A stretch of DNA of 64,000 bases from Saprospirales bacterium (GTDB lineage Bacteria > Bacteroidota > Bacteroidia > Chitinophagales > JADIYW01): NCBI GenBank assembly GCA_016711605.1, contig JADJSS010000044.1:158884-222883 (forward strand), in the 5' to 3' direction. This document shows positions 5,732 through 49,723 of the stretch, piece after piece; within the stretch, counting starts at the first letter, position 1; each line of letters starts with the position of its first letter. Both the position numbers and the translations under genes were made by a program. The notes below the pieces were generated by a model. The model did no database searches. It had not been told where the DNA came from and saw only the letters and a list, made by a program, of their open reading frames with translations.

Positions 5732-5734
5732 TCT

Positions 5735-6777: not shown

Positions 6778-7581
6778 TTATTTTAATTCTGCAAAGAAAT
6801 TAGATGTAACAAATATTTCTAAATTTTCTGAATATTTTTCAATATGAAATAATCCATCTCTGAGTATTCTATATACTTTATACTTTTCATTTAACAAATC
6901 ATAAAAATCCTTGAAGTAAGTTCTAGAATCGATATTGCATCCACCAAATTCAAATTGAATGTATTTAATTTTATTTTCAGACAATAATTTTTTAGCACCA
7001 TTTAAGACACTAAGTTCATTGCCTTCTACATCAATTTTTAAAAATGTAATTTCACTTATATTATTCTCAATACAGTAATCATCCATTTTTTTTACACTGA
7101 TTTTCTCAATTTTATCCATTTTTATATCAATAAAATCAAGGTTTCTTTGGTAAACAGATGCCAGACCAGACAAATCTTCATTTGTATAAAGATTAACTTA
7201 TTATTTTCATTACTAAATCCAAAATTATTTAATATGCATTTTGGGTTTTTAATATTTTGTGACAATGTATTAAAAGTTCTCAAAGATGGTTCAAAAGCAT
7301 AGATTTTGTAATTTCTATCTTTACTGGTTTCAATAAGCATTTTTGAGTATGTTCCAATATTTGCACCTACGTCAAAGAATATCAAATTTGCATCTTTCTG
7401 AGTTTGCGAAAAGATCCGATCCATTACTTTTTATTTCACCACTGTCTTTTACAGAAGTTCCCCAACCGTAATTCATTCCTCTAAGTCCGAAACTATAAAT
7501 CTCTTTAAAAAAAAACTGCATATAACTTCTTCCAAAAAATGGTTTTAAGATTATGCGTAAAAGTGTCGTTATTATCTTCAT
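6778..7581 (-). pseudogene. FkbM-family methyltransferase with two frame breaks
   Basis: ORFs 7372..7581, 7122..7424 and 6778..7173 join into one protein ('IFFDVGANIGTYS...YAFEP...FLKIDVEGNELSVLNG'). The joins require 1-nt changes at the T5 run 7428-7432 and near 7193-7194. Confidence 0.7.
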
Positions 7582-7680: not shown

Positions 7681-10600
7681 TTATCTTAAAACAGTGACTG
7701 TTCCTTTTTTGATTTTATTTTGTTGTTTGCCACCTAAAATTATTTTATATTCAATTACCCATGCGTAGGAATCCAATTGAACAACTTCTCCTTTATAAGA
7801 ACCATCCCAACTAATTCTTATATCGTTTGATTCAAATAAAAAACTCGCCCCACATCTAACAACAACAATTTGTATTCCAATACATTTTTGCCAAATATTT
7901 TGAAATAATCATTTACACCATCATTGTTCGGTGAAAATGCAGTAGGTACCCAAAGGTCACCTTCACATTCCATTATATAAACAGTATCAACTGCTGTGCA
8001 TGTGTTATTGGTAACACTTACCCAATATTTGCCAGCTTGATTAATTGTAATACTATTTCCTGTTTCACCTGTGTTCCAAATAAATTGTGATGCATTTGTA
8101 ATCGCTGTTAACAAGATAGGTTGTCCTCCACAAATCATCGTGTCTTTATTGATTTGAACAGTTGGTATTGCATCTTGCGTAATCACTATACTATCTGATT
8201 CGCTACCGCAACTATTCGAAATAGTTGCAAAATAAGTGTTCGGTTGCGTAACCGTAATCTGTGCTGCAGTTACGCCTGTTGACCAAACTGTATTCGCATT
8301 TCCTGTACTTAATATTCTAGAGAAGCTTCCGCAATACGTTGTATCATTGCCAATGCTAAATGCTGTTGGTGGTGTTAAGATGGTTACTCTAATCGTATCA
8401 GATGCTGAGCATCCATCAGCAGTTACTTTTACAAAATAAGTTCCAGCTTGATTAACAGAGATAGTTGGTGTAACTGCGCCATTATTCCATAAATATGTTA
8501 CGGTTGTTCCGCTTGTAGTTGCATTTAGTGTCACTGTATTTCCTTGACAAATACTGGTATCTCTACCTAAGTTTATCAAAGGAATATTATTTTGGTTGAT
8601 GACAATGGTATCTTTTTTAGTACCGCAACTATTCGAAATAGTTGCAAAATAAGTGTTCGGTTGCGTAACCGTAATCTGTGCTGCAGTTACGCCTGTTGAC
8701 CAAACTGTATTCGCATTTCCTGTACTAAATATTCTAGAGAAACTCCGCAATACGTGGTATCATTGCCAATGCTAAATGCTGTTGGTGGTGTTAAGATGTT
8801 TACTCTAATCGTATCAGATGCAGAGCATCCATCAGCAGTTACTTTTACAAAATAAGTTCCTGCTTGATTAACAGAGATAGTCGGTGAAACTGCACCATTA
8901 TTCCATAAATATGTTACGGTTGTACCACTTGTCGTTGCGTTGAGTGTTATTGAATTTCCTTGACAAATACTGGTATCTCTACCTAAGTTTACCAAAGGAA
9001 TATTATTTTGGTTAATGACAATGGTATCTTTTTTAGTACCGCAACTATTCGTAATGGTTGCGATATATGTATTTGGTTGTGTAACCGTAATTTGTGCTGC
9101 AGTTACACCTGTTGACCAAAATGTATTCGCATTTCCTGTACTTAAAATTCTAGAGAAATTACCGCAATACGTGGTATCATTGCCAATGCTAAATGCTGTT
9201 GGTGGTGTTAAGATGGTTACTCTAATCGTATCAGATGCTGAGCATCCATCAGCAGTTACTTTAACCCAATAAATGCCTGCTTGATTAACTGATATAGTTG
9301 GTGTAATTGCGCCATTATTCCATAAATATGTTACGGTTGTTCCACTTGTAGTTGCATTTAGTGTCACTGATGAACCTTGACAAATACTGGTGTCTTTGCC
9401 TAAGTTTATCAAAGGAATATTATTTTGGTTGATGACAATGGTATCTTTTTTAGTACCGCAACTATTCGTTATGGTTGCAATATATGTATTTGGTTGCGTA
9501 ACTGTAATCTGTGCTGCTGTTACGCCTGTTGACCAAACTGTACTTGCATTTCCTGTACTTAATATTCTAGAGAAACTACCGCAATACGTGGTATCATTGC
9601 CAATGCTAAATGCTGTTGGTGGTGTTAAGATGGTTACTCTAATGGTATCAGATGCTGAGCATCCATCAGCAGTGACTTTTACAAAATAAGTGCCAGCTTG
9701 GTTGACTGAAATAGTTGGTGTAACCGCACCATTATTCCATAAATATGTTACGGTTGTTCCACTTGTAGTTGCATTTAGTGTCACTGTATTTCCTTGACAA
9801 ATACTGGTGTCTTTGCCTAAGTTTATCAAAGGAATATTATTTTGTTTGATGACAATGGTATCTTTTTTAGTACCGCAACTATTCGTAATGATTGCGATAT
9901 ATGTATTTGGTTGCGTAACTGTAATCTGTGCTGCAGTTACGCCTGTTGACCAAACTGTATTCGCATTTCCTGTACTTAAAATTCTAGAGAAGCTTCCGCA
10001 ATACGTTGTATCATTGCCAATGCTAAATGCTGTTGGTGGTGTTAAGATGGTTACTCTAATCGTATCAGATGCTGAGCATCCATCAGCAGTTACTTTTACA
10101 AAATAAGTTCCTGCTTGATTAACAGAGATAGTTGGTGAAACTGCACCATTATTCCATAAATATGTTACGGTTGTTCCGCTTGTAGTTGCATTTAGTGTCA
10201 CTGTATTTCCTTGACAAATACTGGTGTCTTTGCCTATGTTTATCAAAGGAATATTATTTTGGTTGATGACAATGGTATCTTTTTTAGTACCGCAACTATT
10301 CGTAATGGTTGCAATATATGTATTTGGTTGCGTAACTGTAATCTTTGCTGCTGTACGCCTGTTGACCAAACTGTACCCGCATTTCCTGTACTTAAAATTC
10401 TAGAGAAGCTTCCGCAATAGGTGGTATCATTGCCAATACTAAATGCTGTTGGTGGTGTTAAGATGGTTACTCTAATCGTATCAGATGCAGAGCATCCATC
10501 AGCATTACTTTAACCGAATAAAGTGCCAGCTTGGTTGACTGAGATAGTAGGGTAACGCGCCATTATTCCATAAATATGTTACGGTTGTTCCACTTGTAGT

Positions 10601-36496: not shown

Positions 36497-37243
36497 TTAA
36501 TTAATTCGTTCTAGTAATTCATCTTTTTTACTGCGAGCAACTGCTAATTCCATACCATTCGACATGACTACAAAAATGTTATTATCTTGTCTAATAATAT
36601 TTTCAATTTTATCTAAATTTATAATATTGGATTGATGGATTCTCAAGAAATTCTCGTTTATTTCTAAAATTGCTTCAATTTCTTTGAGTGTTTTTGCCAC
36701 CATTATTTTCTTATTTTTTGTGAGAAACAAATGAGAATAATTACTTTCGGCTGTGCAGCAAATCAACTCATCTGTTGCAATTATATGTGCACCATCAGAA
36801 TTAGAAATTAAAAAACGTTTGCCTTTTTTTTCTGAATTTTCTAATTGTTCTTTTAGTATTTCGTATTGCACAGATTTATAGTTTTTATCCACTATGTTCT
36901 TTGCTTTTTGCAAAGCAGTTTCAATTGTATTTTTGGTAACTGGTTTTAAAATATAATCTAACGCACTACATTCAATGGCGCGCAAACCAAATTGATTATA
37001 CGCAGTACAAAAAATAATTTCTGGTTTATGAACATCTAATTTTTGCACCAAATCAAAACCAGTACCATCAGGCATTTCGATATCTAGAAAAATCAAATCC
37101 GGTTTTTTAGAATTTACTAGTTCAATGCCAGATTTTACAGCATTCGCTTCACCAAGAATAGTTACATCAAGTTGAATTTTTTGAATGAGATAACTGATGA
37201 TATCTCGGTTGGTTTTTTCGTCGTCTATGATACAAACAGTCAT
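36497..37243 (-). CDS. LytTR-family response regulator
   Basis: 248 aa. It has a receiver domain ('DLIFLDIEMPDGTGFD') and a C-terminal LytTR DNA-binding domain ('FLRIHQSNIINLDKI'). Confidence 0.85.
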   Translation of the reverse strand: MTVCIIDDEKTNRDIISYLIQKIQLDVTILGEANAVKSGIELVNSKKPDLIFLDIEMPDGTGFDLVQKLDVHKPEIIFCTAYNQFGLRAIECSALDYILKPVTKNTIETALQKAKNIVDKNYKSVQYEILKEQLENSEKKGKRFLISNSDGAHIIATDELICCTAESNYSHLFLTKNKKIMVAKTLKEIEAILEINENFLRIHQSNIINLDKIENIIRQDNNIFVVMSNGMELAVARSKKDELLERIN

Positions 37244-37252
37244 GAATTTTTT

Positions 37253-39292
37253 TTATAAAACTGGTAAATGAATAATTATTTTGGTGCCTGTTGCTTTTTT
37301 TTGTTCATTATATAAATCAACAATTTGAAGTGAAGCTTTATGCACATCAGCATTTTGATTTAAGATATTAATTCTATCCTGAATAATATTGATAGCAATT
37401 GATTTATTATTTTTTGTTCGATAACGCAAATTATATTCTTCTGCTTTTTTTCTGCCAATTCCATTGTCTGTAATTTCACAATGCACCATATTATTTATAA
37501 AACTAAAATAAACCAGCACATAACCTTTGTAACTAATGAATTTGAACGCGTGCCAAATTACATTTTCTAAAAAAGGTTGTATCATCATAATTGGAATTTT
37601 TACAAAATCGGTTGAAAGTCCAGGTTCAATTTTGATGTCAAAATCAAATAAATGATTGTTGCGTTCTTGTTCTAATTTCAAATAAGTAGTTAATAATAAA
37701 ATTTCATTGTCTAGCGAAATATCTGGTTCTGATGAGTTTTCGAGCACCATTCTAATTAACGATGCGAAATTATGCAACATAGAAGATGCTTTTTCATTAT
37801 CGTTAGTAACGATAGAATGCTGAATTGAATTCATGCAATTAAAAATAAAATGCGGATTCATTTGTGATGACAAAGCTTGCATTTGTATTTCTACTTTTTC
37901 TTTCTCAAAAGATTGGATTAATGCAAGACGTTTTTGATCTTCTATTAAGAGATTTTGTTGTTCAATTTCAGCAACACGTTCTTTTACTTTTTCTTCTAAG
38001 ATAGTATTTTCATTTTTGATGAACTCTTCGCTTTGCTGTAGTTCAAATATCAACTGATCTTTTAGTTTTTCAGATGCTAAAAATGAATCTTTAATTCTTA
38101 TAATTAAAGCGACTGAAAATATTATAAGCTCGAGTGCAACACCTACGTATAAGATATTTACATCCACATAAAAATCTTTAATAGGAAAATTTATTTTTTG
38201 CAAGGTAGATATTGCTGTAAAAACAGTGTAAACAATGCTTCCTGAAAAAATAATTCTCTGAAATAAATTTTTGTTTACAATATTATACGTTGCAATCAAC
38301 GTAACTATACTAAAAAAGAAAATTGGAATTCTATACAAACTATATATCAATGGTTCGTTATAAAATGAAATTGAAAATAAATGACCTAAAACAATAACAC
38401 CAACATAAACCAATGAAAAATATTTTAGTGCCATGGTAGAATAATATATAACTTTTTCATTCTTCGTAATTCGAAATGCCTGTTGGTAAAAAATGCTGTA
38501 AAAAAATATCATCAATCCTTTAGTAGATTCATCGACAGCACTGTTACCAATGACGTTAAACATTTTTATGTTTTTTGTAAAAATGTATTGTGCCATGTAT
38601 AAAATCTGACAAAAAGTAGTTAACAGATAAAAAGTATAGTACAGATAAATTTTATCTTTTAAATAATAAAATGCCAATAAATAAAATATGAACATAATAA
38701 GCACCATACCGAGTATAAACAAATACTGTAATGTAAATCCAAAATTTCTTTTGTTTGTATTCGTATTATATGTTGGAAAACTAAAAACATTTGAATAACA
38801 GTAAATACTATTTTTATTTACAAAATAATCTTTAAATGAAATTGGTTGATGAATCAAATAAGTATGCAATGTGCTTTTCGGCAGGATAGTAATTTCAAAA
38901 AATTGTTTATTAGATTTTATATAATCAGATTTTTTTAGAACTATTTTATTTGGTAAAATAGTATCAGCTTCACCAACATTATTGTATTTATTTAGAGTTG
39001 AATAAAATTTTAAATGTATAATTGTATCTGAAGTATTGACATAATTAACTACTGTAATAATTTTTTTATTCAACCGATAAGAAGTAGCGTTGTAAGGTTT
39101 TTCAATAATGAATGAATCATTTTCTATTGTTCCTATATAAGATTGAAAATGGTCATATATGGTATCTAATTCTGTATGAATACTTTGAAGTTGCTGTACT
39201 TGATATATGTTTGTACTAATATTTGCTGATACATTTGCAGTAATAAAGCAAGTAATAATTATAGCAACAATATATTTTTCGATGCGTATCAT
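37253..39292 (-). CDS. Sensor histidine kinase (7TMR-DISM-type sensor plus LytS-type His_kinase/HATPase)
   Basis: 679 aa. It has a signal/periplasmic domain, about 7 TM helices, a coiled coil, an H-box 'QMNPHFIFNCMNSI' and an ATPase 'ITDNGIG'. Confidence 0.8.
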   Translation of the reverse strand: MIRIEKYIVAIIITCFITANVSANISTNIYQVQQLQSIHTELDTIYDHFQSYIGTIENDSFIIEKPYNATSYRLNKKIITVVNYVNTSDTIIHLKFYSTLNKYNNVGEADTILPNKIVLKKSDYIKSNKQFFEITILPKSTLHTYLIHQPISFKDYFVNKNSIYCYSNVFSFPTYNTNTNKRNFGFTLQYLFILGMVLIMFIFYLLAFYYLKDKIYLYYTFYLLTTFCQILYMAQYIFTKNIKMFNVIGNSAVDESTKGLMIFFYSIFYQQAFRITKNEKVIYYSTMALKYFSLVYVGVIVLGHLFSISFYNEPLIYSLYRIPIFFFSIVTLIATYNIVNKNLFQRIIFSGSIVYTVFTAISTLQKINFPIKDFYVDVNILYVGVALELIIFSVALIIRIKDSFLASEKLKDQLIFELQQSEEFIKNENTILEEKVKERVAEIEQQNLLIEDQKRLALIQSFEKEKVEIQMQALSSQMNPHFIFNCMNSIQHSIVTNDNEKASSMLHNFASLIRMVLENSSEPDISLDNEILLLTTYLKLEQERNNHLFDFDIKIEPGLSTDFVKIPIMMIQPFLENVIWHAFKFISYKGYVLVYFSFINNMVHCEITDNGIGRKKAEEYNLRYRTKNNKSIAINIIQDRINILNQNADVHKASLQIVDLYNEQKKATGTKIIIHLPVL

Positions 39293-39400
39293 TTAATTTA
39301 AAAATACAATATTATTAATGAAAAAAAATTTGGTTCATTTTTCATGCACCAAAGTTTTTATCAACTTAAAAGTATTATTTTATACTATAAAACAAATGAA

Positions 39401-39435
39401 CCATTGAGTATTCTACTGTTTTATTGATTATTTGG
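39401..39435 (-). promoter_or_regulatory. Direct-repeat element (variant copy) upstream of the histidine kinase gene; candidate LytTR binding site
   Basis: The minus strand reads CCAAATAATCAATAAAACAGTAGAATACTCAATGG. It lies about 108 nt before the start at 39292 and overlaps the last codons of 39421..39954. Confidence 0.55.
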
Positions 39436-39954
39436 CACAAATGCATTTGGATTGTCTAACGTTTTTACGACTCGATCTAATGCAATTAAAATATCTGGTT
39501 TTTTGTTGTTGATTAATTCTAAAGTATAAATATCAAATTCAATTTCTTCGCCATTTTTGATATAAAACGTAGTGATTCCTTCGCTTCTTGAATTATTATT
39601 ATTGTATATAATTTTTCCTTTAAATGTATAATCTAAAATTTGGTGTAATGGAATTTCTATCGGATCATTTTTATCTATAAAAATTGAGATAAACGCTTCG
39701 CCAATAAATGGAATAATGCCAAGCCAATTAAACCGATATTTAAAGAAAGCAAGTCGCCGATTCGTTAAATAAAGTACACCACTGGTGTATTCTTTTTTTT
39801 CATTTCTTCTTAATAATTTTACTGCATCATTTACATCAACAATTTCTTCATTTCCGACTTTTTCAAAAACAAATTTGTCACGTACTTTTCCACCAATAAA
39901 TAGAAATAAAAATGTTGGTATTAAAATTAAAGCTGTAATAATTAAGAATGCCAT
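39421..39954 (-). CDS. Membrane-anchored protein with a PH/GRAM-like domain
   Basis: 177 aa with an N-terminal TM helix and a 'GVLYLTNRRLAFFKY' GRAM/bacterial-PH-like strand. Confidence 0.45.
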   Translation of the reverse strand: MAFLIITALILIPTFLFLFIGGKVRDKFVFEKVGNEEIVDVNDAVKLLRRNEKKEYTSGVLYLTNRRLAFFKYRFNWLGIIPFIGEAFISIFIDKNDPIEIPLHQILDYTFKGKIIYNNNNSRSEGITTFYIKNGEEIEFDIYTLELINNKKPDILIALDRVVKTLDNPNAFVPNNQ

Positions 39955-39980
39955 AGTTTTAAAAGTTTGATTATTAATAA

Positions 39981-40544
39981 TTATTTTTCACCAGCATTTA
40001 TTGGTGTATCAGCAATTTTATGAAGTGCATATTCTTTAATTTCCAATGTTTCTCCATTAGTAATATTAATTTTCATCCATCCATATTGATAACCACCTTG
40101 AGAATTTTGTTTACGAAAACCAACATAAAAATCACCAATATCAGAATAACCATAATCGGTTCCATTTGATAATAAATGACGAAGGAAAATATGACCATTT
40201 TTCCAAATATTTAAATTTGGTTGTATACTTGATCCTTTGTTAATGTTCTTTATTACAAAGGCATCACTTACCATCTCTACCAAAAACTGGTACTTATTAT
40301 CATATACTCTCAAATCTATTGTGTGTTGATTTGGATCATCGTCAGTATGAGTGACAACAAACTGAAAATCCTGAACTATTTCGCCATCAATATTTACATC
40401 TACAGAATTGAAAAGTGTAGGATAAACAGCTGCCACCTTAATATTTAAATTCACTTCATTAATATCAGGATTATTAGTTTCTTTTTCTTTTTTGCATGCT
40501 ATTATTGATAATAATAATATCGCAACTAGTTGTAATCTTTTCAT
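39981..40544 (-). CDS. Lipoprotein of unknown function
   Basis: 187 aa with lipobox 'LLLSIIAC'. The C-terminus 'GYQYGWMKINITNGETLEIKEYALHKIADTPINAGEK' is shared with the next gene. Confidence 0.55.
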   Translation of the reverse strand: MKRLQLVAILLLSIIACKKEKETNNPDINEVNLNIKVAAVYPTLFNSVDVNIDGEIVQDFQFVVTHTDDDPNQHTIDLRVYDNKYQFLVEMVSDAFVIKNINKGSSIQPNLNIWKNGHIFLRHLLSNGTDYGYSDIGDFYVGFRKQNSQGGYQYGWMKINITNGETLEIKEYALHKIADTPINAGEK

Positions 40545-40565
40545 TTTATTTTTTTTTAAAGACTA

Positions 40566-41132
40566 TTATTTATCACCTGCTTTAATTGCAGTTTCTGGAA
40601 TTGTTTGGACTGCATATTCTATAATGGTTAACTTATGACCACCAGTTACATTTACTTTCATCCAACCGTAATGGAAATCACCACCAATATCTACTCTAAA
40701 GCCAATCAATTTATCGCCTTGTTCGTTGATTCCAACAGGATAGCCACTAACACCATCTATATTTAAATAGAAAGTAACTATGGAATTCCATGTTCCAGAT
40801 GCTGAATTTATTGATGCATTTTCAGCAAATATTTTAATTTTATTGCTTACAGGCGATTGTGCTTCTGTTATAAATTCATAATATGGAAACCCATTAATGC
40901 CTACATCTGAATTATCTTTATCTAAACTTGGTAAGGTGCTGAATATATTAAAATCATCGGTGCCGTCATCATCTAAATCAATGATTTTATTATTAGAATT
41001 TCCACTGCTGTCGATAGTTATATTTACGATTCTATCATCGATATTTGGATCGTTGGATTCTGTAGTTTCTTTTTTACATGCAAATGCGCTGATAATTATT
41101 ACGCAAATTGCAATTGATTTAATTGTTTTCAT
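40566..41132 (-). CDS. Lipoprotein, paralogue of 39981..40544
   Basis: The real start is probably 'MKTIKSIAICVIIISAFAC' at 41132; the track ORF extends to 41324. The C-terminus reads 'DFHYGWMKVNVTGGHKLTIIEYAVQTIPETAIKAGDK'. Confidence 0.55.
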   Translation of the reverse strand: MKTIKSIAICVIIISAFACKKETTESNDPNIDDRIVNITIDSSGNSNNKIIDLDDDGTDDFNIFSTLPSLDKDNSDVGINGFPYYEFITEAQSPVSNKIKIFAENASINSASGTWNSIVTFYLNIDGVSGYPVGINEQGDKLIGFRVDIGGDFHYGWMKVNVTGGHKLTIIEYAVQTIPETAIKAGDK

Positions 41133-41157
41133 AATTTTATTTTTGTTAGTTAAAAAT

Positions 41158-41662
41158 TTATCTAAAAGGTGAAAAAGACTCTTCGGTTTTTGGTAATGGT
41201 AATGACTGAGCAATAAATAAAACGAACGGAAATTTATCTGCATGATAGGTGGCTCTTGCTTCACCGCTGGTGAATTTAAACTCAACAGATAAATAGGTAT
41301 CATCTGGTGCATTTGGATGCGCATGATGCATAATACTTTTTAGATTTTCCCAAACAAATTTTTTATTATTCTTTAAAGTTAAACCATCTTTATCTATTAA
41401 AGTTATGAGATTATTTTTTGAATTTTCTATTATAAAATAAATTAAAAACAACATTGCAGATAAAACAGCACCAAGCAATACATAATATTTTCCATTTTCT
41501 TCAGCTTTAAATCCAGCGAAAACAATACTAATTCCAAGCGTCAAAAAGAAGAACAACAAAAACAAACCAGCAATCTTTTTGTGCCATAGTTAATGTATGA
41601 TTGTAATGCAAAATAACTGGTTGCAATATAATTTGTTGTGCTTTTTGTTTGGTGCTGTTCAT
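41158..41662 (-). pseudogene. Two-TM membrane protein with a PH-like C-terminal domain; one frame break near the 5' end
   Basis: The ATG at 41662 ('MNSTKQKAQQIILQPV...') runs into ORF 41158..41565 after a 1-nt change in an A-run around 41570-41585. Confidence 0.4.
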
Positions 41663-41669
41663 GTTTGAA

Positions 41670-42292
41670 CTATTTTAATTTCACCGTAAGTGTATTGTAA
41701 TTTCTGAAAAGCTCATTTAAAGTTGGTTCATTTTCTGGTAAAGCCATAGTAAGTGGTGTGTTGAATGGATTCTTTAATCCACAACCTTTACAGTTATCAG
41801 GTATTGGATTACACGAACCACAACAAACTATTTTATTATCTTGACCTATACTGCAACAAACACCTGTTTGACCACATTCATTCCAACCATTGTCATTCTT
41901 TTTAAAAGCTACGTTAGTTAAATTAACATCAAAAATTGACTATTTCCGCCATTCATTTTTTTAGAAGCATTTAACGATATGGTATCCACTGCTGCAATTA
42001 TTTTGGTTATTTGCATCACTTTTGCCGACTCATTGACAGCATAATCTAAACGATAAAGTTTTGTAATAACGCTTTCATTTGGTCCATCTGAAAATGTTAA
42101 GCCATATTGAACACTATCAATAAATCCAGCTAATAAAGCATTGTTATTTACAGTAAATGGTAATGTAATTCCATTTGGATCTTTTATTGAAAGTTCATAG
42201 TATTTGGTTTCAGCATCATTACTTGTTTTGTTTTTACAAGAAGTTATTAAGGTGAATGCCAAAATAAGTGTTAGAATTGTTTGTGTTTTCAT
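41670..42292 (-). pseudogene. Lipoprotein with a cysteine-rich C-terminal module; one frame break
   Basis: ORF 41918..42292 has lipobox 'LITSC'. One extra base in the A5 run at 41931-41935 continues it as '..NSQFFDVNLTNVAFKKNDNGWNECGQTGVCCSIGQDNKIVCCGSCNPIPDNCKGCGLKNPF...TVKLK', with the stop at 41670. Confidence 0.5.
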
Positions 42293-42313
42293 AGTGTTGT
42301 TTTAGTTGGATAT

Positions 42314-43330
42314 TTATTGTTTTACTACATAAATTGAATTTGCAAGAGATTCTAATGATGATGAATCGTTAAGTGTTAACGATTGTGCATTTAGCCAATA
42401 TCTTGCTTTTTTCTTGCCAGTTGCTATTTTTTCGTAACCTGCAATATAAACATCTGAACTATTTACGGCTATGCCATCTGCGGATGATTCTGTTAGAAAC
42501 GGACTTGATAAATTAATTAAAGAATCATTTATCAAACAAACTGCTTTATTTTGACTTACACCTGAAATATAACGAGTATTGTTATCTACAACAATATCTT
42601 TCATAGTTGCATTAATAAAATAGGTTTGCGCTGTACCATTTATACGACATACTGTTGTGTTGTTGAATGTTCCCACCGTATAAATATCAGTTCCAATAAC
42701 TTTTATTCCATTTAATACACTTGTACTATTTCCAATTCTTGTTTGAACAATGTTATTTTTCCAATTTTTTTCAAATACATTCAATGCTGTATCTGCTTGT
42801 TTTTCGTAGCCAACTACATACACATTTCCATTGCTGATATCCATGTCATTTGGAAATGCTTTATTTTCTAAAGATGTGATATTTGTACCTGTGCCATTTT
42901 GCCAAATCTTCATCACTTCCTGACCACCATAATACTCTGTGCCTGCAACATATACAATATTATTTACGACAATTATTTTTTGAGCAAAGCCACTTTTTAT
43001 CACAGCGGGATTTTGCAATGGCAGCAAATTCAGTATGCCATTTTTCCAGTAGACAGGTGCACTCGTTCTTCCATAAGAAATATATCCTGAAACATAAACA
43101 TCATTACCTGAAACATAAATATCTGTTGCAGCAGAATTTCTACTATTATTTTGGAGCATTACAAGTTGATTGTTTTTCCAATATACCGCTTGTATGTAAA
43201 TTGCAGAATCTGGATCATAAGTCAAGTAACCAGAAATATATACATCTGCAGGTACTTGAGCTGGTTCTGTTTTTTTGCAAGAAAAAATTGTTGCAACAAC
43301 AACTAAAAAAAAGATCTGTACTTTTTTCAT
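42314..43330 (-). CDS. Lipoprotein with about 7 'VYVxGY...YWKNG' propeller-like repeats
   Basis: 338 aa with lipobox 'ATIFSC'. It shows repeated 'DVY(I/V)SGY', 'VYWKNG' and 'IWQNG'. Confidence 0.55.
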   Translation of the reverse strand: MKKVQIFFLVVVATIFSCKKTEPAQVPADVYISGYLTYDPDSAIYIQAVYWKNNQLVMLQNNSRNSAATDIYVSGNDVYVSGYISYGRTSAPVYWKNGILNLLPLQNPAVIKSGFAQKIIVVNNIVYVAGTEYYGGQEVMKIWQNGTGTNITSLENKAFPNDMDISNGNVYVVGYEKQADTALNVFEKNWKNNIVQTRIGNSTSVLNGIKVIGTDIYTVGTFNNTTVCRINGTAQTYFINATMKDIVVDNNTRYISGVSQNKAVCLINDSLINLSSPFLTESSADGIAVNSSDVYIAGYEKIATGKKKARYWLNAQSLTLNDSSSLESLANSIYVVKQ

Positions 43331-43349
43331 AAAATTTATTTTTTTTAAA

Positions 43350-44374
43350 TTATTCTACGACAAAAATCCCATTTGCTCTTGCTCGGTGTTCATAAATAAG
43401 ATCCGTAGTAAGATTGTATAATTTACCATTTTTCCAATAGCTAGCTAACGATGGTTGATCTACATCCCATTCATTTCCTGCAATATATACATCACTACCA
43501 AGTAAAAACATATCATTTGTTTTCATTTGTACATTTGTTGGATTTTCTAACGGATATTCTACACCGTTTTTCCAATAAACTATAATATCATCACCGCTTG
43601 CATTACTTCGACCACCACAAGCATACATATCATTACCAACAAATGAAATTTTATTAGCATAAGATTCATCATTAATTATTGAATTTGATGTATTATTAAG
43701 CCAATAAGTAGCTTTATTTATACCTGTTCCAATCTGTAAATAACCAACAGTAAAAACAGAATCGCCTTTAACAAAAATATCTTCTGCACTTGCATAATCA
43801 GTTGATACACTCGTGACAAATGCCATATCATTTTTCCAGTACATGGCAACTTTATGTCCATTGGCTGCATATTTATAACCACTAACATAAACATCATTAT
43901 TTTTTACAAAAATAGAAGTTGCAGTTGCACTGAAAGTACCATCTGTAAGATTATTAATTACACCATTTTCCAATAAACTGCCTTTGAATTAACACCTTCT
44001 GATGTACTTCCTGATATATATACATTATTGTTTACTACTGTAATTTTATCTGCATATGCTCTAAAAGTGCCATCGGTTAAATATGTTGCAACACCATTTT
44101 TCCAGTATTTAACAATAAGCTTAGTACTTTCATAAGAAACTCCTAATACATACACATCATTACCAACCACGAAAATAGATATTGCTAATTCATCATGAGT
44201 ACCATCTGATAATGTTACAGCGATACCATTTTTCCAGTATTTTGCTACGGCATGTCCATTGTCATTGTATTGATAACCTGCAATGTAAACATCAGGTGTT
44301 TTTGCATTTTCTTTTTTGCAAGAAATAAATGCTATAAATGCAATCAATAAAATAAAAAGAGATTTCGTTTTCAT
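43350..44374 (-). pseudogene. Paralogous 'YWKNG' repeat lipoprotein; one frame break
   Basis: ORFs 43958..44374 and 43350..43973 join as '..KAVYWKNGVINNLTDGT..' with one extra base in the T4 run at 43966-43969. Lipobox is 'AFISC'. Confidence 0.55.
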
Positions 44375-44375
44375 A

Positions 44376-45262
44376 CTAATTGATTTTATAATTTAAACTA
44401 CACGATTTTATATTGCCACTAGCGGTATTGTAGTTATAAACCTGATTTGTTTTTAGTTTTTTGGTTTCAAAATTTAATTGTCCGATGAAGTCGTGAAAAA
44501 TCAAATCGATATCTTGCATTAATAATTCAACTCTGTCATTTTCTGAAATAGTAAACGTTATATTTTTAGAATTTGGACCCACTGCAAACATGTAAGTATC
44601 GTTTACATTTTTTTTCAAACAGAAATATTTCCAACCAAAACATTCACGCCAACATCAGGTGCATCTGTTCGAAAGAAAGCAATGTCCCAAACATTTCCTT
44701 TTGCATTCTTTTCTGTTGATTCAATATAATCGATGTTTAAGGTAAACGTGTTTGTTTTGGGTTTTGAAAATTCTATATTTTCTTTAATTAATTTTTGTTC
44801 ATGCTTGTTGCCAGTTCCATCGGTTCCTGATAATAATGTTTTAATCGAAATAGTATGATTTCCTGGAGATAATTTGAGTGCTGCATACGGAATAAAAAGT
44901 GATTTCTTTTTATCAAATTTAGATGCTTGCATTTCATTTGAAAGAAAATCAAATCCAAATGTTGCTTCGCCATTTGCGTTTGCAGTGGATTGATAACCTA
45001 AAGCTGGCTCAACTGCTTTGTTGTTTTCATACAAAATTGCACTGATAGAAAAAGATGCTTTTGATAAAATAGTATCGTTATGGTTTTCTTCTTCTAACGG
45101 CAAAAAATTATAACGATAGGTAATATTAATTCCTTTTACACCATCAGATGTGTAATCTGTTTCTACATTAACAACTGTGCTAATTATTTTAAAATTACTA
45201 TTTGCGAAAGTGGTGAAATTTAAACCAAGCGATATAAATAATATTGATAGTATTTTTTTCAT
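44376..45262 (-). pseudogene. Exported protein: N-terminal beta-sandwich-like domain plus a tentative C2-like C-terminal domain; a frame break at an 8-nt homopolymer
   Basis: ORFs 44615..45262 and 44376..44618 meet at the T8 run 44618-44625. The joined sequence reads '..APDVGVNVLVGNISV.KKNVNDTYMFAVGPNSKNITFTISENDRVELLMQDIDLIFHDFIGQLNF', which is reminiscent of a C2 domain. Confidence 0.45.
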
Positions 45263-45318
45263 TTTTTCATTTTTAAGTACAACAACTAAACTACTACATT
45301 AATTTCATTTAACAACAA

Positions 45319-45353
45319 TCATTGAGTATTCAGCAGTTTTATTGAGTATTTGG
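45319..45353 (-). promoter_or_regulatory. Direct-repeat element upstream of 44376..45262; candidate LytTR binding site
   Basis: The minus strand reads CCAAATACTCAATAAAACTGCTGAATACTCAATGA, about 56 nt before the ATG at 45262. A 'TAGTTTAG' (near the Bacteroidota -7 TAnnTTTG) lies between them. Confidence 0.55.
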
Positions 45354-45366
45354 AAAGTTATAAGTT

Positions 45367-46500
45367 TTAGAAAACAAAAACAGCGCTGAAGTAATTCCTG
45401 TTATTGGTTGTTCCACTACCTAATTTCCCAAATTCATTATTACCAGTTGTCCATACTGTATCACTTGCGCTTTTCAATATGGAATAATTATAATTAGTTG
45501 AGATATCGGAAATATTATTTTTAATAGGTTTAAAGGTAAATACATTTGCATTATTGCTATCGCCTAACTGACCTTCCGTATTTTTGCCTGTACCATATAA
45601 AACATTAGAAAAATCAAGATAAAATGAAGTGCTTTGTTTGGTGCTGATAAATCGAACATTATTTGCCATTTTAGTAAATGTTCTTAACTCGCCATTGTTT
45701 CCATTTCCAATTTGTCCATTTAAGTTACTACCAGCAACCCATAAACTATGATCACCTCTAATAATCATGCTGTGTGCATTTCCTGCCGAAACTGCAATAA
45801 CACTATCCAAGATGGTAACAAATGATTTTGAACCACTTCTTAAACCATTACCAAATTGACCAAATCCGTTATAACCAGACGCATATAAAAAACCAGATCT
45901 ATCGATAATTAAAGTATGTAAAATACCAGCAGAAACTGCTTTTATATTTTCTGCAACTTTTAAAAATTGATACGTTTGTAACGTATTGCCAGTGCCTAAT
46001 TGTCCATTGTCATTAAATCCGGTTGCCCAAAGTGAGAAATCTGATTTTATAATAAACGAAAAATCGTTGCTGCAACTAATACTGATTACACTGTCTGCTG
46101 CTTTTGTAAACGTATTAATGTTTGAATGAATAGAATCGCCAAGTCCTAACTCACCATTTAAGTTATTGCCACTTACCCAAAGCGTTTTATCTTTCTTAAT
46201 TATAAACGTATGACCATATCCACCTGATACTTGAATGACATCATCTGCCACTTTAATAAATGTTAGACTACCGATATACGTACTGTTTCCGAATTGTCCG
46301 TCATTGTTTGATCCGGAAACCCAAAGTGTATTATCATCTTTTAAAATGTAACTGGTTGCAAATCCAGCTTCAACATTATTATTTGTAAATGTTTCGTTTA
46401 TTGATGGTATGTCTTTTTTACAACTAAATATTGTGCAAATAAAAATTATAACTAAAATTTGACTTACTATTTTCATGTGTATGATTTTATTGAGTGACAA
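45367..46500 (-). CDS. RCC1-repeat (seven-bladed propeller) lipoprotein
   Basis: 377 aa with lipobox 'CTIFSC'. Seven repeats: 'GSNNDGQFGN', 'GNNLNGELGLGD', 'GFNDNGQLGTGN', 'GYNGFGQFGNG', 'GSNLNGQIGNGN', 'GKNTEGQLGDSN' and 'GNNEFGKLGSGT'. An alternative start lies at 46476. Confidence 0.8.
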   Translation of the reverse strand: MSLNKIIHMKIVSQILVIIFICTIFSCKKDIPSINETFTNNNVEAGFATSYILKDDNTLWVSGSNNDGQFGNSTYIGSLTFIKVADDVIQVSGGYGHTFIIKKDKTLWVSGNNLNGELGLGDSIHSNINTFTKAADSVISISCSNDFSFIIKSDFSLWATGFNDNGQLGTGNTLQTYQFLKVAENIKAVSAGILHTLIIDRSGFLYASGYNGFGQFGNGLRSGSKSFVTILDSVIAVSAGNAHSMIIRGDHSLWVAGSNLNGQIGNGNNGELRTFTKMANNVRFISTKQSTSFYLDFSNVLYGTGKNTEGQLGDSNNANVFTFKPIKNNISDISTNYNYSILKSASDTVWTTGNNEFGKLGSGTTNNRNYFSAVFVF

Positions 46501-46551
46501 TATTGATTTTAATAACTACTAACTTAACAAAACAATTCAAAAAAAGCCGAA

Positions 46552-46586
46552 CCATTGAGTATTCAGCAGTTTTATTGAGTATTTGG
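46552..46586 (-). promoter_or_regulatory. Direct-repeat element upstream of the RCC1 gene; candidate LytTR binding site
   Basis: The minus strand reads CCAAATACTCAATAAAACTGCTGAATACTCAATGG, 50-75 nt before the RCC1 start. Confidence 0.55.
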
Positions 46587-46590
46587 TAAT

Positions 46591-47040
46591 TTATTTTATG
46601 TTTATAGTCTTTTTATACGTGTTCATCTTTACACAATCAAAGCTGAGTTTGTTTGCATATTTGCCATATACTTTTGTGTTTATCACAATTTTGTGTTCGC
46701 CATTTTCTAAATCAATGTCTTTGTATTTTATAAAATAGGAAATAGTTTTTGCTGGTTTTTCATACAAAGAATATGGATCTAAAGTTTCGGACTTAGTAAC
46801 TAATTTTTCATTAGTATTTAATAAATTGCTAAAGAAGCCACTTTTACCATTATTTAATTCTATAGATGTAGTTACATAAATGTTTATGGAATCAATATTT
46901 TTTGGCTTTTTTAGGTTTGAATAATCTAAATTATATTCCAAATAAATTCCAGATTTACCTTTAATTACAGTATCTAAAGCTATTTTAAAAGTTTGTTTAG
47001 AATTGCAATTCGGCTCTGTAGAAAACGAAACTGAAAACAT
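46591..47040 (-). CDS. Exported protein related to the N-terminal domain of 44376..45262
   Basis: 149 aa. 'FKIALDTVIKGKSGIYLEYNLDY...ENGEHKIVINTKVYGK' parallels 'FKIISTVVNV...SPGNHTISIKTLLSG'. The in-frame upstream stretch 'KKSILLICLAFFMFSVSFS' suggests the true start is near 47076, which would need a 1-nt change. Confidence 0.45.
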   Translation of the reverse strand: MFSVSFSTEPNCNSKQTFKIALDTVIKGKSGIYLEYNLDYSNLKKPKNIDSINIYVTTSIELNNGKSGFFSNLLNTNEKLVTKSETLDPYSLYEKPAKTISYFIKYKDIDLENGEHKIVINTKVYGKYANKLSFDCVKMNTYKKTINIK

Positions 47041-47215
47041 AAAGAATGCTAAGCAAATTAATAAGATTGATTTCTTAGCATAGCTGTAGTTTTTAAATAG
47101 TGGTGTTGGTGAATTTCGATTTCATGTTGTTTTGTTTTATGGTTATTAGTTATTTTATCGCTGCTGTTTTATGTATAACTTTTAAAACGAAAAAATAATT
47201 CCAAAGTATTATCAG

Positions 47216-47250
47216 CAATTGAGTATTCAGCAGTTTTATTGAGTATTTGG
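47216..47250 (-). promoter_or_regulatory. Direct-repeat element upstream of 46591..47040; candidate LytTR binding site
   Basis: The minus strand reads CCAAATACTCAATAAAACTGCTGAATACTCAATTG. This is the first copy in the direction of transcription. Confidence 0.55.
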
Positions 47251-47343
47251 TAGCTGTGAATTAAAAAAGAAGCAAACTTTAATTTCTAAACCAGAAGTAT
47301 AGTAAAATAATCTATATAGTATGTTTAAAACTATTTAAGTACA

Positions 47344-48384
47344 TTAATTTTTATTGTTCAATTTTACTAATTCTTCTTCCACATTTTTTAATCGTAGTTG
47401 AAGTTGTTGCAATTCAGAATTTTCAAAAGATTTTACGAATTTCCAATTAATATCCATTTTATCTAATGCATTTGCTTCTATTAATAATTTTGGATGGATT
47501 TTGTGGAATCATTTAGTAATACAATTTCTAATTTTTCTTTGTTTTCAATTATCGATGCACGGTGTTCAACAATTATTAAATCAGGATATTTACTTTTTAT
47601 TTTCTCAATATATTTTTGTGCATGGTCGTTCAAGGTTTGTTGTTTCCACTTATCGTAGGCAATCCAGATACTTGGTAACATCAAAATTATACTTAACATA
47701 CTGATTAACCATGTAGACGATGTTTTTGTATTTCATTATCATTATTTTGAATGATTTTTGGAAGTTGCATCCAACGTATTAACAATTGTGAACCTACGCC
47801 AATAAAAAAAGAATTAATGATATAAAAATAGAGTCCACCTAAAAACATTTGCCAATTTAAATTGGCTAAGCCATAACCAGCAGAACACAATGGTGGCATA
47901 CATGAAGTTGCGACTGCCACACCAGCTATAACTTTTGTTCCATCTTTTTTAATGATACCTAGAAATCCTGCAAGTCCACCAAAAAATGCTAACATGACAT
48001 CAAAAATAGTTGGATGTGTGTAATCATTTAGGATATTGGTTGAATTATGAAATGGTGATATTAAAAAGAATATGGTGGAAGAACATAAGCTAATCAACAA
48101 AGCAAATACATAATTTCTAAATGACTGATAAATACTAATTTTATCACTGATACTCAAACCAAATGCAATTCCAACAACCGGTCCCATTAAAGGTGAAATC
48201 AACATAGAGCCAATAATAGCAGTAATATTATTATTAGTTAATCCAATACACGCCATAATCATTGCAAAAACAAAAGCCACATATTGTGACCTGTAAATTG
48301 AATACCGTCCTTAATTTCATTAAGTGTAACGTCGATGTTTTCTTCTAAGGGTAAACCAAATGATTCTTTAATTTTTCGGAGCAT
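47344..48384 (-). pseudogene. DUF389-family membrane protein with several frame breaks
   Basis: 'MLRKIKESFGLPLEENIDVTLNEIKDG' starts at 48384. ORF 47705..48280 has 'IGSMLISPLMGPVVGIAFG'. ORF 47481..47699 and a further frame then end in 'EEELVKLNNKN', with the stop at 47344. Confidence 0.55.
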
Positions 48385-48468: not shown

Positions 48469-49723
48469 TTATATCAAGAAATTAAACAACATTGGATTGT
48501 CGTTGAGTTGCACAAAATCAACTTTGTATTTTTCATACGATTAATGAGCGGCTCGTAATCTTCCTTATTTTTTAATTCAATACCAACTAAAGCTGGTCCG
48601 CTTTCTTTGCTGTTTTTCTTGGTGTATTCAAACAAGGTAATATCTTCGTTTGGTGATAATACTTTAGATACAAACTGCTTCAACGCACCGGCACGTTGCG
48701 GAAATTTGATAATAAAGAAATGTTTCAAGCCTTCAAAAATCAATGAACGCTCTTTAATATCTGGCATGCGTTCTATATCGTTGTTGCCACCACTGATAAC
48801 ACAAACAACTATTTTACCTTTTATTTTTTCTTTGTAATAATCCAATGCAGCAACAGATAGAGCACCTGCTGGTTCCAGTACAATTGCATCAGAATTATAC
48901 AATTGCATAATTTTTGTACAAATTCTTCCTTCAGGAATCAAAACCACATCTTCTAAATAATTTTTACAAATCTGAAATGGAATTTGTCCAACTTGTTTTA
49001 CAGCAGCACCGTCAACAAAATTGTCGATTTTATCTAATGTAATAATTTTATTTTTTTCGATAGAAACTTTCATGGCTGGCGCACCCTAATGGTTCTACAC
49101 CAACAATTTTTGTATTTGGTGAAAACTCTTTAAAATAGGTAATTAAACCTGCACTCAATCCACCACCACCGATAGGCACAAACAAATAATCAATTTTCTT
49201 TTTACCAATTTGTTCTAAAATTTCAATACCAACCGTACCTTGTCCTTCTACAATTAATTTATGATCAAAAGGTGGTACAAATATTTTATTGTGGTGATGT
49301 ACATATTTCAACGCGGCACTTTTAGCGTCGTCATAGGTATCGCCAGACAATACAATTTCAATATAATTTTTACCAACTCTTCTTACTGCTTCTACTTTCT
49401 GTTTTGGTGTTGGAGTTGGCATAAACACGATGCCTTTTATTTTTAATAAATTACAAGAATAAGCAAAACCTTGTGCGTGGTTGCCTGCAGAAGAACAAAC
49501 AACACCTTGCTTTTTTTCTGCAGCAGAAAGCTGAGAAATGAAATTATATGCGCCACGAATTTTGTAAGAACGAACTGCCTGCAAATCTTCTCTTTTAAGA
49601 AATACTTTTGCACCTGTTTCGTCAGAAAGAATTTGATTTAATTTTAAAGGTGTTACTTCACTGATACCTTCTAGATTTTTTGGCTTGGATAATTCCTTTT
49701 ACGGATGGCTGTGTGGTTGACAT
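48469..49723 (-). pseudogene. ilvA: Threonine ammonia-lyase (threonine dehydratase) with three frame breaks
   Basis: ORFs 49048..49584 ('SYKIRGAYN' PLP-lysine motif, 'PIGGGGLSAG') and 48474..49073, plus an N-terminal piece from the ATG at 49723. Breaks lie at the T6 run 49676-49681, the C3 run 49084-49086 and the T5 run 48529-48533. The corrected C-terminus reads '..VQLNDNPMLFNFLI'. Confidence 0.8.

Follow-up and report, generated by a model that had tools for sequence, protein, structure and literature searches.

Do ten neighbouring genes for exported and membrane proteins, lying beside a sensor kinase and its response regulator, form one regulated unit, and what would such a unit do? The question is raised by a locus in the genome of a Saprospirales bacterium (GenBank assembly GCA_016711605.1, contig JADJSS010000044.1, positions 158,884 to 222,883). 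This whole stretch of 64,000 nucleotides (nt) was analysed and is called the window here; all coordinates are positions in it. A first-pass annotation, made from the letters alone, had proposed a dedicated cell-surface module that is switched on by the adjacent kinase. We identified a 30-nt direct-repeat element upstream of these genes with the layout of LytTR binding sites, and we read 36497-47260 as a clade-specific accessory module consisting of the kinase, the LytTR regulator and the genes they control, which would provide inducible Ca2+-dependent binding or adhesion; we give this reading a probability of about 55%. Its two halves differ in strength. That the locus is a clade-specific autoregulated LytTR regulon with envelope-directed products is probable, judged from sequence comparison. 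Inducible Ca2+-dependent binding or adhesion is a guess and much weaker than the regulatory half; it is based on a C2 fold, acidic loops, a DxDxDG motif and ligand-binding propellers.

The island comprises ten genes (g1 to g10) from 39421 to ~47081, all on the minus strand as first annotated, and every substantial open reading frame (ORF) in this interval lies on the minus strand too. Together with the kinase and regulator genes the features are as follows (aa, amino acids; TM, transmembrane; Cys, cysteine):

g1: 46591..47081, minus strand; exported beta-sandwich protein, 163 aa after restoring one base past 47077
g2: 45367..46476, minus strand; seven-blade RCC1-repeat lipoprotein, 369 aa, lipobox IFSC
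g3: 44376..45262, minus strand; exported protein with an N-terminal beta-sandwich and a C-terminal C2 domain, 295 aa after restoring one base past 44615
g4: 43350..44374, minus strand; 'YWKNG' Kelch-like propeller lipoprotein, 341 aa after restoring an A (A4 to A5) at 43965
g5: 42314..43330, minus strand; seven-repeat 'YWKNG' Kelch-like propeller lipoprotein, 338 aa
g6: 41670..42292, minus strand; lipoprotein with a Cys-rich C-terminal region, 207 aa after restoring one base past 41930
g7: 41158..41662, minus strand; two-TM membrane protein, 167 aa after removing an extra base at 41576
g8: 40566..41132, minus strand; all-beta lipoprotein, 188 aa
g9: 39981..40544, minus strand; lipoprotein, g8 paralogue, 187 aa
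g10: 39421..39954, minus strand; membrane protein, 177 aa, TM-anchored at the N-terminus and carrying a PH/GLUE-like domain
Sensor histidine kinase: 37253..39292, minus strand; 679 aa, extracytoplasmic N-domain, 7TMR-DISM_7TM and LytS/YehU-type His_kinase
Response regulator: 36497..37243, minus strand; 248 aa, receiver and LytTR

With single-base insertions and deletions (indels) corrected, three spacers are long (114 nt between g1 and g2, 104 nt between g2 and g3, 128 nt between g10 and the kinase gene). Kinase and regulator genes are 9 nt apart, and the spacers from g3 through g10 measure, in order, 1, 19, 21, 7, 25, 21 and 26 nt, so that the range of 1-25 nt first given for the genes downstream of 45262 was essentially right (1-26 nt after correction). 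Four transcription units can be proposed from this arrangement: g1, g2, g3-g10 and kinase-regulator.

The element that precedes these units is AATACTCAAT-N10-AATACTCAAT, which in the window reads AATACTCAAT-AAAACTGCTG-AATACTCAAT. It is found at four positions:

Element copy 1: 47218..47247, minus strand; exact, 136 nt upstream of the g1 ATG, present upstream of the g1 orthologue in the related locus L002 too
Element copy 2: 46554..46583, minus strand; exact, in the g1-g2 spacer, 77 nt upstream of the g2 ATG
Element copy 3: 45321..45350, minus strand; exact, in the g2-g3 spacer, 58 nt upstream of the g3 ATG
Element copy 4: 39403..39432, minus strand; degenerate (26/30), AATAATCAAT-AAAACAGTAG-AATACTCAAT, overlapping the g10 stop codon, 110 nt upstream of the kinase ATG

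Three exact copies in the window compare with 0.00 expected by chance. The degenerate copy 4 has a canonical counterpart at the same position in L033, a near-identical relative (g10 97.7% identical). Each long spacer holds one copy and the spacers of 1-26 nt hold none; thus, one copy precedes each of the proposed transcription units. The core of the element is a 9-nt direct repeat, ATACTCAAT-N11(12)-ATACTCAAT, with a spacer of 11-12 nt and a period of 20 bp; in some orthologues the period is 21 bp and the repeated unit is lengthened to ACCAAATACTCAAT. Published LytTR sites consist of two repeats of 9-11 nt separated by 11-13 nt (PMC4847170), and the sites of AgrA sit just upstream of the promoters they activate (PMC4227749). 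The element has the published LytTR-site layout at the four window positions and at orthologous loci.

Conservation singles out the same sequence. When the regions upstream of g3 from seven loci were aligned, whose g3 proteins are 50-58% identical, the element stood out as the block without variation, and downstream of it came two less strongly conserved blocks, TTGGAATT and TAGTAGTTTAG. We scanned one genome per species for 185,579 species with both 10-mers fixed, and the JGI metagenomes with a looser pattern. In both collections the full element occurred only in island-type loci of Chitinophagales/Saprospirales. The possibility that it is a widespread repeat was discarded: the other matches of the scans were ACTCAAT microsatellites or chance matches. 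We likewise rejected a terminator or a REP-type (repetitive extragenic palindromic) sequence, since only copy 2 overlaps a terminator-like hairpin and this hairpin has not been retained by the remaining copies or by the orthologues. The hairpin itself, followed by a T-run, lies at 46546-46567 just past g1, over the promoter-proximal half of copy 2, and may simply be the terminator of g1. A scan for sigma-70 promoters returned fewer matches than shuffled sequence and is uninformative for a Bacteroidota genome.

The copies also leave a trace in public short-read data. Contigs of several runs end at the element (45324-45346, 46557-46579 and 47217), and two runs contain joined forms (45359>47217 and 46594>47215) that skip from one copy to another, with the loss of g1 or of both g1 and g2. 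Such joints may be artefacts of k-mer assembly at a repeat longer than 31 nt, or they may be real variants that arose by recombination between the copies. The loci L001 and L026 lack g1 and g2.

The neighbouring two-component system (TCS) is of the type that would use such a site. The kinase carries PF07695 (7TMR-DISM_7TM; E 5.1e-14, residues 190-397) and PF06580 (His_kinase; E 2.5e-20), and the regulator carries PF00072 (Response_reg; E 2.2e-21) and PF04397 (LytTR; E 1.2e-16), both above the cut-offs. Residues 1-190 of the kinase match no Pfam family at E <= 0.1, and neither DISMED1 nor DISMED2 was recognised there. This N-domain of ~190 aa is 11-40% identical to that of the L001 orthologue, compared with 60-78% for the TM and kinase part. 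The metagenome contig L045 encodes a distantly related kinase/LytTR pair that shares this architecture at 31-32% identity, and 2.5 kb downstream of it, at 5348-5398, are three consecutive ATACTCAAT-like half-sites with a period of 21 bp. This hints that the half-site may be common to a wider group of Bacteroidota LytTR regulators, and we take it as a lead, not as proof.

Comparison with related loci shows how island, element and TCS are connected. Island and TCS fill a variable slot between the genes for threonine dehydratase (ThrDH) and malic enzyme. Between the window and L001, which has the same flanks, the flanking ThrDH and malic enzyme are 87-91% identical, whereas the regulators are 62%, the kinases 56% and the island proteins 32-75% identical. 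The slot content varies among relatives while the flanks stay conserved, which bears out the initial description as an island. L002/L023 hold g1, g2, g3, g5 and two g6 paralogues. Only part of the locus is in view in L015 and L022, and in L022 that part contains g2, g3, an extra lipoprotein gene, g6, g7, g4, g8, g9, g10 and the kinase gene. L026 contains g3, three small genes, a gene for a 1085-aa type IX secretion (T9SS) cargo protein, then kinase and regulator; its flanks are TetR-efflux/GldC instead of ThrDH/malic enzyme, and thus island and TCS are found jointly between different flanks.

In these loci the element precedes g1, g2 and g3 wherever those genes occur. In L001 and L026/L054 it also lies before a gene for a 904-aa (Peptidase_S74) or 1085-aa (Por_Secre_tail) protein, which in turn precedes the kinase gene. 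In L022 the kinase gene begins 53 nt past g10 with no element between them, and would thus be read from the g3 promoter. All observed copies of the TCS are on the same strand and downstream of an element-bearing promoter, a placement that by analogy is the positive-feedback layout typical of LytTR systems. Elsewhere the slot is reduced: in L058 and L060 it holds g3 alone, without TCS or element, and the most distant g3 loci (L028 and L029) are small and have neither. The absence of the element where g3 stands alone without a TCS supports the proposed regulon. L027/L059 contain an island of 14 or more genes with the element before a g2-like gene and a degenerate copy before g3. From this distribution, g3 appears to be the ancestral resident of the slot, and expanded island, element and TCS mostly travel jointly, with exceptions.

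Several further differences between the loci were observed. A gene for a large surface protein stands between island and kinase in L001 (12973-15687), L026 (12895-16152) and L054 (2448-5138), and there is none in the window; the Peptidase_S74 domain of the 904-aa form is a tail-fibre chaperone domain. The extra lipoprotein of L022 (Chitinophagales STL-BAC16; 5357-6166, 269 aa, with Y/D/G repeats) is encoded between g3 and g6; nothing in Pfam matches it, and the window contains no equivalent. Tandem duplications are present in L002 (10709-11870, two g6 paralogues that are 50% and 76% identical to g6 of the window) and in L042 (30-1308, two g3 copies), which points to ongoing birth and death of island genes.

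These data suggest the following sequence of events. An extracytoplasmic signal would be sensed by the fast-evolving N-terminal domain of the kinase. The phosphorylated LytTR regulator would then bind, as a tandem dimer, to ATACTCAAT-N11-ATACTCAAT (period 20-21 bp), and the bound repeat would lie just upstream of the core promoters of g1, g2 and g3-g10. Binding upstream of the regulator's own operon would add positive autoregulation. We infer the binding of the regulator to the element, the activation and the autoregulation from this layout. Control by the adjacent kinase, as originally suggested, thus gains in-silico support from a conserved LytTR-like element, but the linkage to a kinase is not universal.

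What would such a regulon deliver? The proteins are directed to the envelope: g1 and g3 carry type I signal peptides, six proteins (g2, g4, g5, g6, g8 and g9) have lipoboxes, and two are membrane-anchored, g7 by two TM helices and g10 by one at its N-terminus, all in agreement with the first description of their N-termini. For several proteins the fold could be assigned as well. g2 is a bona fide seven-repeat RCC1 propeller, with seven G.N..GQLG motifs and matches to Pfam WD40_RLD (E 1.3e-52, 179.8 bits, cut-off 150) and RCC1_2 (E 1.7e-39, 133 bits); it had been called a seven-blade RCC1 lipoprotein from the start. g4 and g5, annotated as propellers on account of their motifs, each contain seven 'YWKNG' repeats of ~48 residues. 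Their family profile matches Kelch propellers (KLHL22 with E 3e-4, Keap1 with E ~0.07), and no Pfam Kelch match was obtained. The g5 family comprises 1516 homologues; nearly all of those listed are ~340 aa long and unassigned in Pfam, and those with a name are from Bacteroidota. An intact g4 orthologue of 346 aa is encoded in L022, and the exact g5 sequence of the window had no match in the assembly index.

The proposed relation between g1 and g3 and the C2-like tail of g3 were both corroborated. g1 aligns with the N-domain of g3 in hhalign (94.9%, E 4.5e-8), which identifies it as a homologue of the N-terminal sandwich of g3; its orthologue in L002 is 90% identical and 178 aa long. The g3 family consists of 45 proteins only, each ~294 aa, and those with a taxon label come from metagenome-assembled genomes of Chitinophagales or Sphingobacteriales. 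An AlphaFold2 model of g3 built from the family alignment (pLDDT 86.8, pTM 0.81) was compared with known structures using Foldseek. Its C-terminal half matches the C2 domain of cPLA2 (1rlw; E 9e-5, prob 1.0, TM-score 0.73), and the matches 1rlw, 6nyc and 3w57 all have prob 1.0 with TM-scores (target) of 0.73-0.76; C2 domains of Munc13, myoferlin and E-Syt were also among the matches. According to the model, the C-terminal half is an eight-stranded C2 sandwich. Sequence searches returned no Pfam C2 match for g3, and rabphilin C2 as the best match in the PDB had an E of 0.46, so that g3 is a structural match to C2 and not a member of the sequence family. Four aspartates never vary in the family alignment (D193, D203, D251 and D253), and two more, D200 and D258, show a conservation of 90% or above. 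These residues lie in the beta1-beta2 loop and in a later inter-strand loop and include a D-x-D-x4-D pattern. The acidic loops would correspond to the pair of Ca2+-holding loops of C2 domains, and Ca2+ binding is predicted for g3.

The remaining island proteins are less easily placed. g8 and g9 are paralogues (33% identical) as first stated, from a family of 27 proteins, and have in common YGWMK(V/I)N(V/I)T at the C-terminus (YGWMKVNVT in g8) as well as a conserved DxDxDGxxD loop. The AlphaFold2 model of g8 is all-beta (pLDDT 80) and has no significant fold match in the PDB (best E 0.048, TM-score ~0.2); weak matches with high root-mean-square deviation to unnamed viral proteins and one phage tail fibre were not trusted. 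Judged from this model, g8 and g9 represent an orphan fold with a DxDxDG motif. g6 has 10 Cys within its ~40 C-terminal residues and an intact orthologue of 211 aa in L022, and gave no family or PDB match. The two calls of PH-like proteins stand in part: g10 has a weak match to the PH-like Pfam family Vps36 GLUE (E 1.1e-4), just under the cut-off, and its relatives amount to 10 representative clusters among 1.84 billion proteins, whereas g7, with an intact orthologue of 173 aa in L022, has sub-threshold family matches only (STM3941_fam, E 0.0036, NCBIfam).

For g1 and g3-g10, searches of Pfam, NCBIfam, PADLOC and PDB sequences gave nothing above threshold, and PADLOC models had no match at E <= 0.01 for any of the ten island proteins. 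As had been noted, no enzyme or transporter is interspersed, and Pfam, NCBIfam and PADLOC revealed no defence family either. No described system of this composition, which had not been recognised in the first reading, was found in family, PADLOC and literature searches.

The regulon would thus send to the envelope two secreted beta-sandwich proteins (g3 with a C2 domain), three seven-blade propeller lipoproteins, a lipoprotein with a Cys-rich tail, two orphan DxDxDG lipoproteins and two proteins of the inner membrane whose cytoplasmic domains would be PH-like. Together they would bind a membrane or surface ligand in an inducible, Ca2+-dependent manner, for instance in attachment to other cells or within activated-sludge flocs. 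That they bind Ca2+, are exposed at the surface and serve adhesion we infer from motifs, folds and export signals. The description as a cell-surface module needs qualification. The exported block is real, but by the positive-inside rule g7 and g10 are probably inner-membrane proteins with cytoplasmic soluble domains; since these domains face the cytoplasm, not every island product would be on the surface. The roles first put forward for the module, namely adhesion, prey interaction or surface remodelling, are conjectural. The lipoboxes end in FSC, ISC, TSC, FAC or IAC, generally followed by KK, and from the lipidated Cys the six lipoproteins read CKKD, CKKE, CKKTE, CKNK, CKKE and CKKEKE. The lipoprotein export signal (LES) of Bacteroidota is C-X-K-(D/E)2 with two acidic residues as minimum, and MucG has the variant KKEVEEE (PMC5080379). 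The signal is only partly matched (CKKE, CKKD), and therefore surface exposure of the island lipoproteins is not established.

Several observations weigh against our reading as a whole. In the island lipoproteins the lysines of the LES are in place with only one adjacent acidic residue. Ca2+ binding and adhesion are deduced solely from conserved Asp patterns and fold. The gene content is fluid, with g4, g5, g1 and g2 coming and going between relatives, which weakens the idea of a fixed multi-protein apparatus, and the g4/g5 propeller family is widespread in Bacteroidota, elsewhere in unrelated contexts. No kinase or regulator was found in L027/L059 within the 10 kb fetched downstream. The linkage to a TCS that exists in several relatives was not seen over this distance in L027/L059, and L058 and L060, with g3 alone, lack it. 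On the promoter side, the conserved blocks downstream of the element do not fit cleanly to the canonical Bacteroidota -33/-7 spacing, and AraC-type and other regulators likewise use direct repeats with a period of ~21 bp. Finally, the RNA data described below are assembled contigs, in which 5' ends are not callable and DNA carry-over is possible.

The main rival, which we consider unlikely, is a hot spot without functional unity: the slot would gather unrelated genes for exported proteins, the TCS would be a passenger, and the 30-mer would be a shared promoter or a duplication remnant. This would account for the wide variation in slot content, with nothing but g3 in L058 and L060 and 14 or more genes in L059, for the different order and membership in the window, L001, L002, L022 and L026, for the unrelated contexts of the g5 family and for the L059/L027 island, which shows no adjacent TCS. 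It is difficult to reconcile with the position of the element before non-homologous genes (g1, g2, g3, the gene for the 904-aa S74-domain protein, that for the 1085-aa T9SS cargo and the kinase gene), and conservation in front of such genes makes a neutral duplication remnant unlikely. In addition, no other intergenic block is conserved so well as the element across loci with proteins of ~50% identity, loci with g3 by itself and no TCS lack the element, and island and TCS move together between different flanks.

A bolder version of the functional proposal is conceivable, and we regard it as a long shot. In uncultured Chitinophagales of activated sludge the island could be a previously undescribed, Ca2+-dependent envelope programme inducible by a signal and assembled largely from domains typical of eukaryotes (C2, RCC1, Kelch-like, PH/GLUE-like) and two orphan folds. 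The fast-diversifying 7TMR-DISM sensor would drive it by way of the new LytTR operator, and secreted g3, the only member that the locus always has, would bind foreign or host-like membranes, serving attachment to, or attack on, other cells such as protists or filamentous bacteria.

It is improbable that the ten genes are the accessory set of a known surface system, be it a Sus-like polysaccharide utilisation locus, a fimbrial operon or cargo of the T9SS or gliding machinery. Lipoproteins make up many Bacteroidota surface systems, the element precedes the gene for the 1085-aa Por_Secre_tail protein in relatives, and a GldC-like gene is nearby in L026. The ten window proteins, however, contain no SusC/SusD, glycoside hydrolase, fimbrillin or Por_Secre_tail/CHU_C domain, and the folds of g3 and g8 match none of these systems.

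A pheromone- or bacteriocin-type LytTR locus comparable to agr, com or pln is very doubtful. Here a small secreted product, for instance the Cys-rich end of g6, would be the signal and the kinase sensor would define pherotypes. The LytTR regulator, the direct-repeat sites, the apparent autoregulation, the Cys-rich tail of g6 and a kinase sensor that diverges far faster than the kinase core could all be explained in this way. Nevertheless, the kinase is of the 7TMR-DISM/LytS-YehU type and not an HPK10 peptide receptor, the block is without a C39-peptidase ABC exporter, a leader-peptide gene or an immunity gene, and g6 is a lipoprotein of 207 aa and not a short precursor.

A decaying island, in which the single-base indels in g1, g3, g4, g6 and g7 of the window would make five of ten genes non-functional frameshifted pseudogenes, is effectively excluded, since the indels are absent from near-identical DNA contigs of four runs and, where covered, from RNA contigs of four runs, two of the five alter the length of short base runs (AAAAA in g4, GG in g3), and the genes for ThrDH (two indels), a PKD/Ig_7/CHU_C T9SS protein and an FkbM methyltransferase are split likewise.

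The frameshifts are most likely assembly errors and not biology, because independent DNA and RNA contigs lack them and unrelated genes of the window are split in the same manner. The indel sites were placed by alignment with intact orthologues and checked in Logan contigs of four activated-sludge or wastewater DNA runs (>93% identical to the window) and of four metatranscriptome runs. The DNA-run contigs carry the compensating changes, +1 after 47077, 44615, 43965 and 41930 and -1 at 41576; the change after 47077 in g1 is supported by one DNA run and one RNA run only. In the window sequence as given, g3 appears as two ORFs (44615-45262 and 44376-44618) and so does g4 (43958-44374 and 43350-43973), the Cys-rich tail of g6 is lost past 41918, g7 lacks its first 32 codons, and the signal peptide of g1 is not in frame with any start codon. 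The ATG of g1 is at 47081-47079 with the missing base directly after it. The first-pass annotation had the layout and the N-termini right, but its g1 start at 47076 is not a start codon and it read through the indels silently. Further indel or split-gene positions in the window are 40549, 48474-49584, 6778-7424 and 7818-10369. The source assembly thus seems error-prone, and pseudogene calls made from the window deserve distrust.

The same public data speak to expression. Wastewater metatranscriptome assemblies contain up to 40% of the island k-mers, and contigs from four runs cover g2 to g9 with intact reading frames. One run gave near-continuous cover from 41583 to 45135. Kinase and regulator were almost uncovered in these assemblies. 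These RNA contigs are consistent with transcription of the island in situ.

Beyond the island, Rfam and tRNA scans of the window gave no match. A 72-aa ORF with an N-terminal hydrophobic segment lies at 47481-47699, 5 nt past a DUF389 gene (47705-48280), and has no counterpart there in L001.

If our reading as an inducible LytTR regulon is right, the locus is of wider interest. LytTR systems are well studied in Firmicutes and Proteobacteria. Literature searches turned up no characterised LytTR example in Bacteroidota and no described 7TMR-DISM/LytTR system in this phylum. Here, the candidate operator, the full candidate regulon and the autoregulatory loop can be read directly from the sequence, and the targets include four protein families that are restricted, or nearly so, to one wastewater clade, among them a secreted bacterial protein with a modelled C2 domain and conserved acidic loops. 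Kinase sensor and cargo diverge much faster than the flanks, as would be expected of genes that act at an ecological interface, be it attachment, grazing or phage pressure. The host organisms abound in wastewater treatment plants, and floc attachment is of practical importance there. Should the module be a loose collection of lineage-specific lipoproteins, it would be of local interest only.

The products resemble known proteins to a varying degree. The modelled fold of g3 is like that of eukaryotic C2 domains (cPLA2-alpha, Munc13 C2B, synaptotagmin/E-Syt), and its conserved Asp residues would lie in the loops that bind Ca2+ there. In contrast to these, g3 is secreted, bacterial and without significant sequence similarity to them, and its C2 domain is joined to a novel beta-sandwich at the N-terminus, which also exists by itself as g1. 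Among the propellers g2 passes the Pfam RCC1 thresholds, and g4/g5 match Kelch by profile with seven repeats; the differences are that all three are Bacteroidota envelope lipoproteins, that g4 and g5 miss the Pfam Kelch models and that these two belong to a large uncharacterised Bacteroidota family of >1500 members. The island lipoboxes are followed by K-K-(E/D/T), resembling the LES and the KKEVEEE of MucG, but the island proteins have a single acidic residue past the lysines where the LES requires at least two.

The signalling part has the closest relatives. Like the LytS/LytTR systems of E. coli (BtsS/BtsR, YpdA/YpdB) and, by regulator type, AgrA of S. aureus, it combines a PF06580 core and seven TM helices with a receiver-LytTR regulator; BtsS, too, has been described as a receptor with seven TM helices (PMC10653868). 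The candidate operator, a pair of 9-nt direct repeats spaced 11-12 nt apart and placed just upstream of promoters, is comparable to the sites of YpdB and AgrA, and as at agr P2 a site is also present at the sensor operon of the island. Unlike in these systems, the kinase has a large, fast-evolving extracytoplasmic N-domain of ~190 aa without Pfam match, the half-site ATACTCAAT is new and its binding by the regulator predicted, the candidate targets are ten exported or membrane proteins instead of a transporter (btsT, yhjX) or toxins, and the host is an uncultured Chitinophagales bacterium. The sensor domain of the kinase, the sequence of the half-site and the set of targets appear to be undescribed. 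By its domain features and by the architecture of its candidate sites, with binding predicted from sequence, the signalling device itself belongs to the LytS/LytTR kind.

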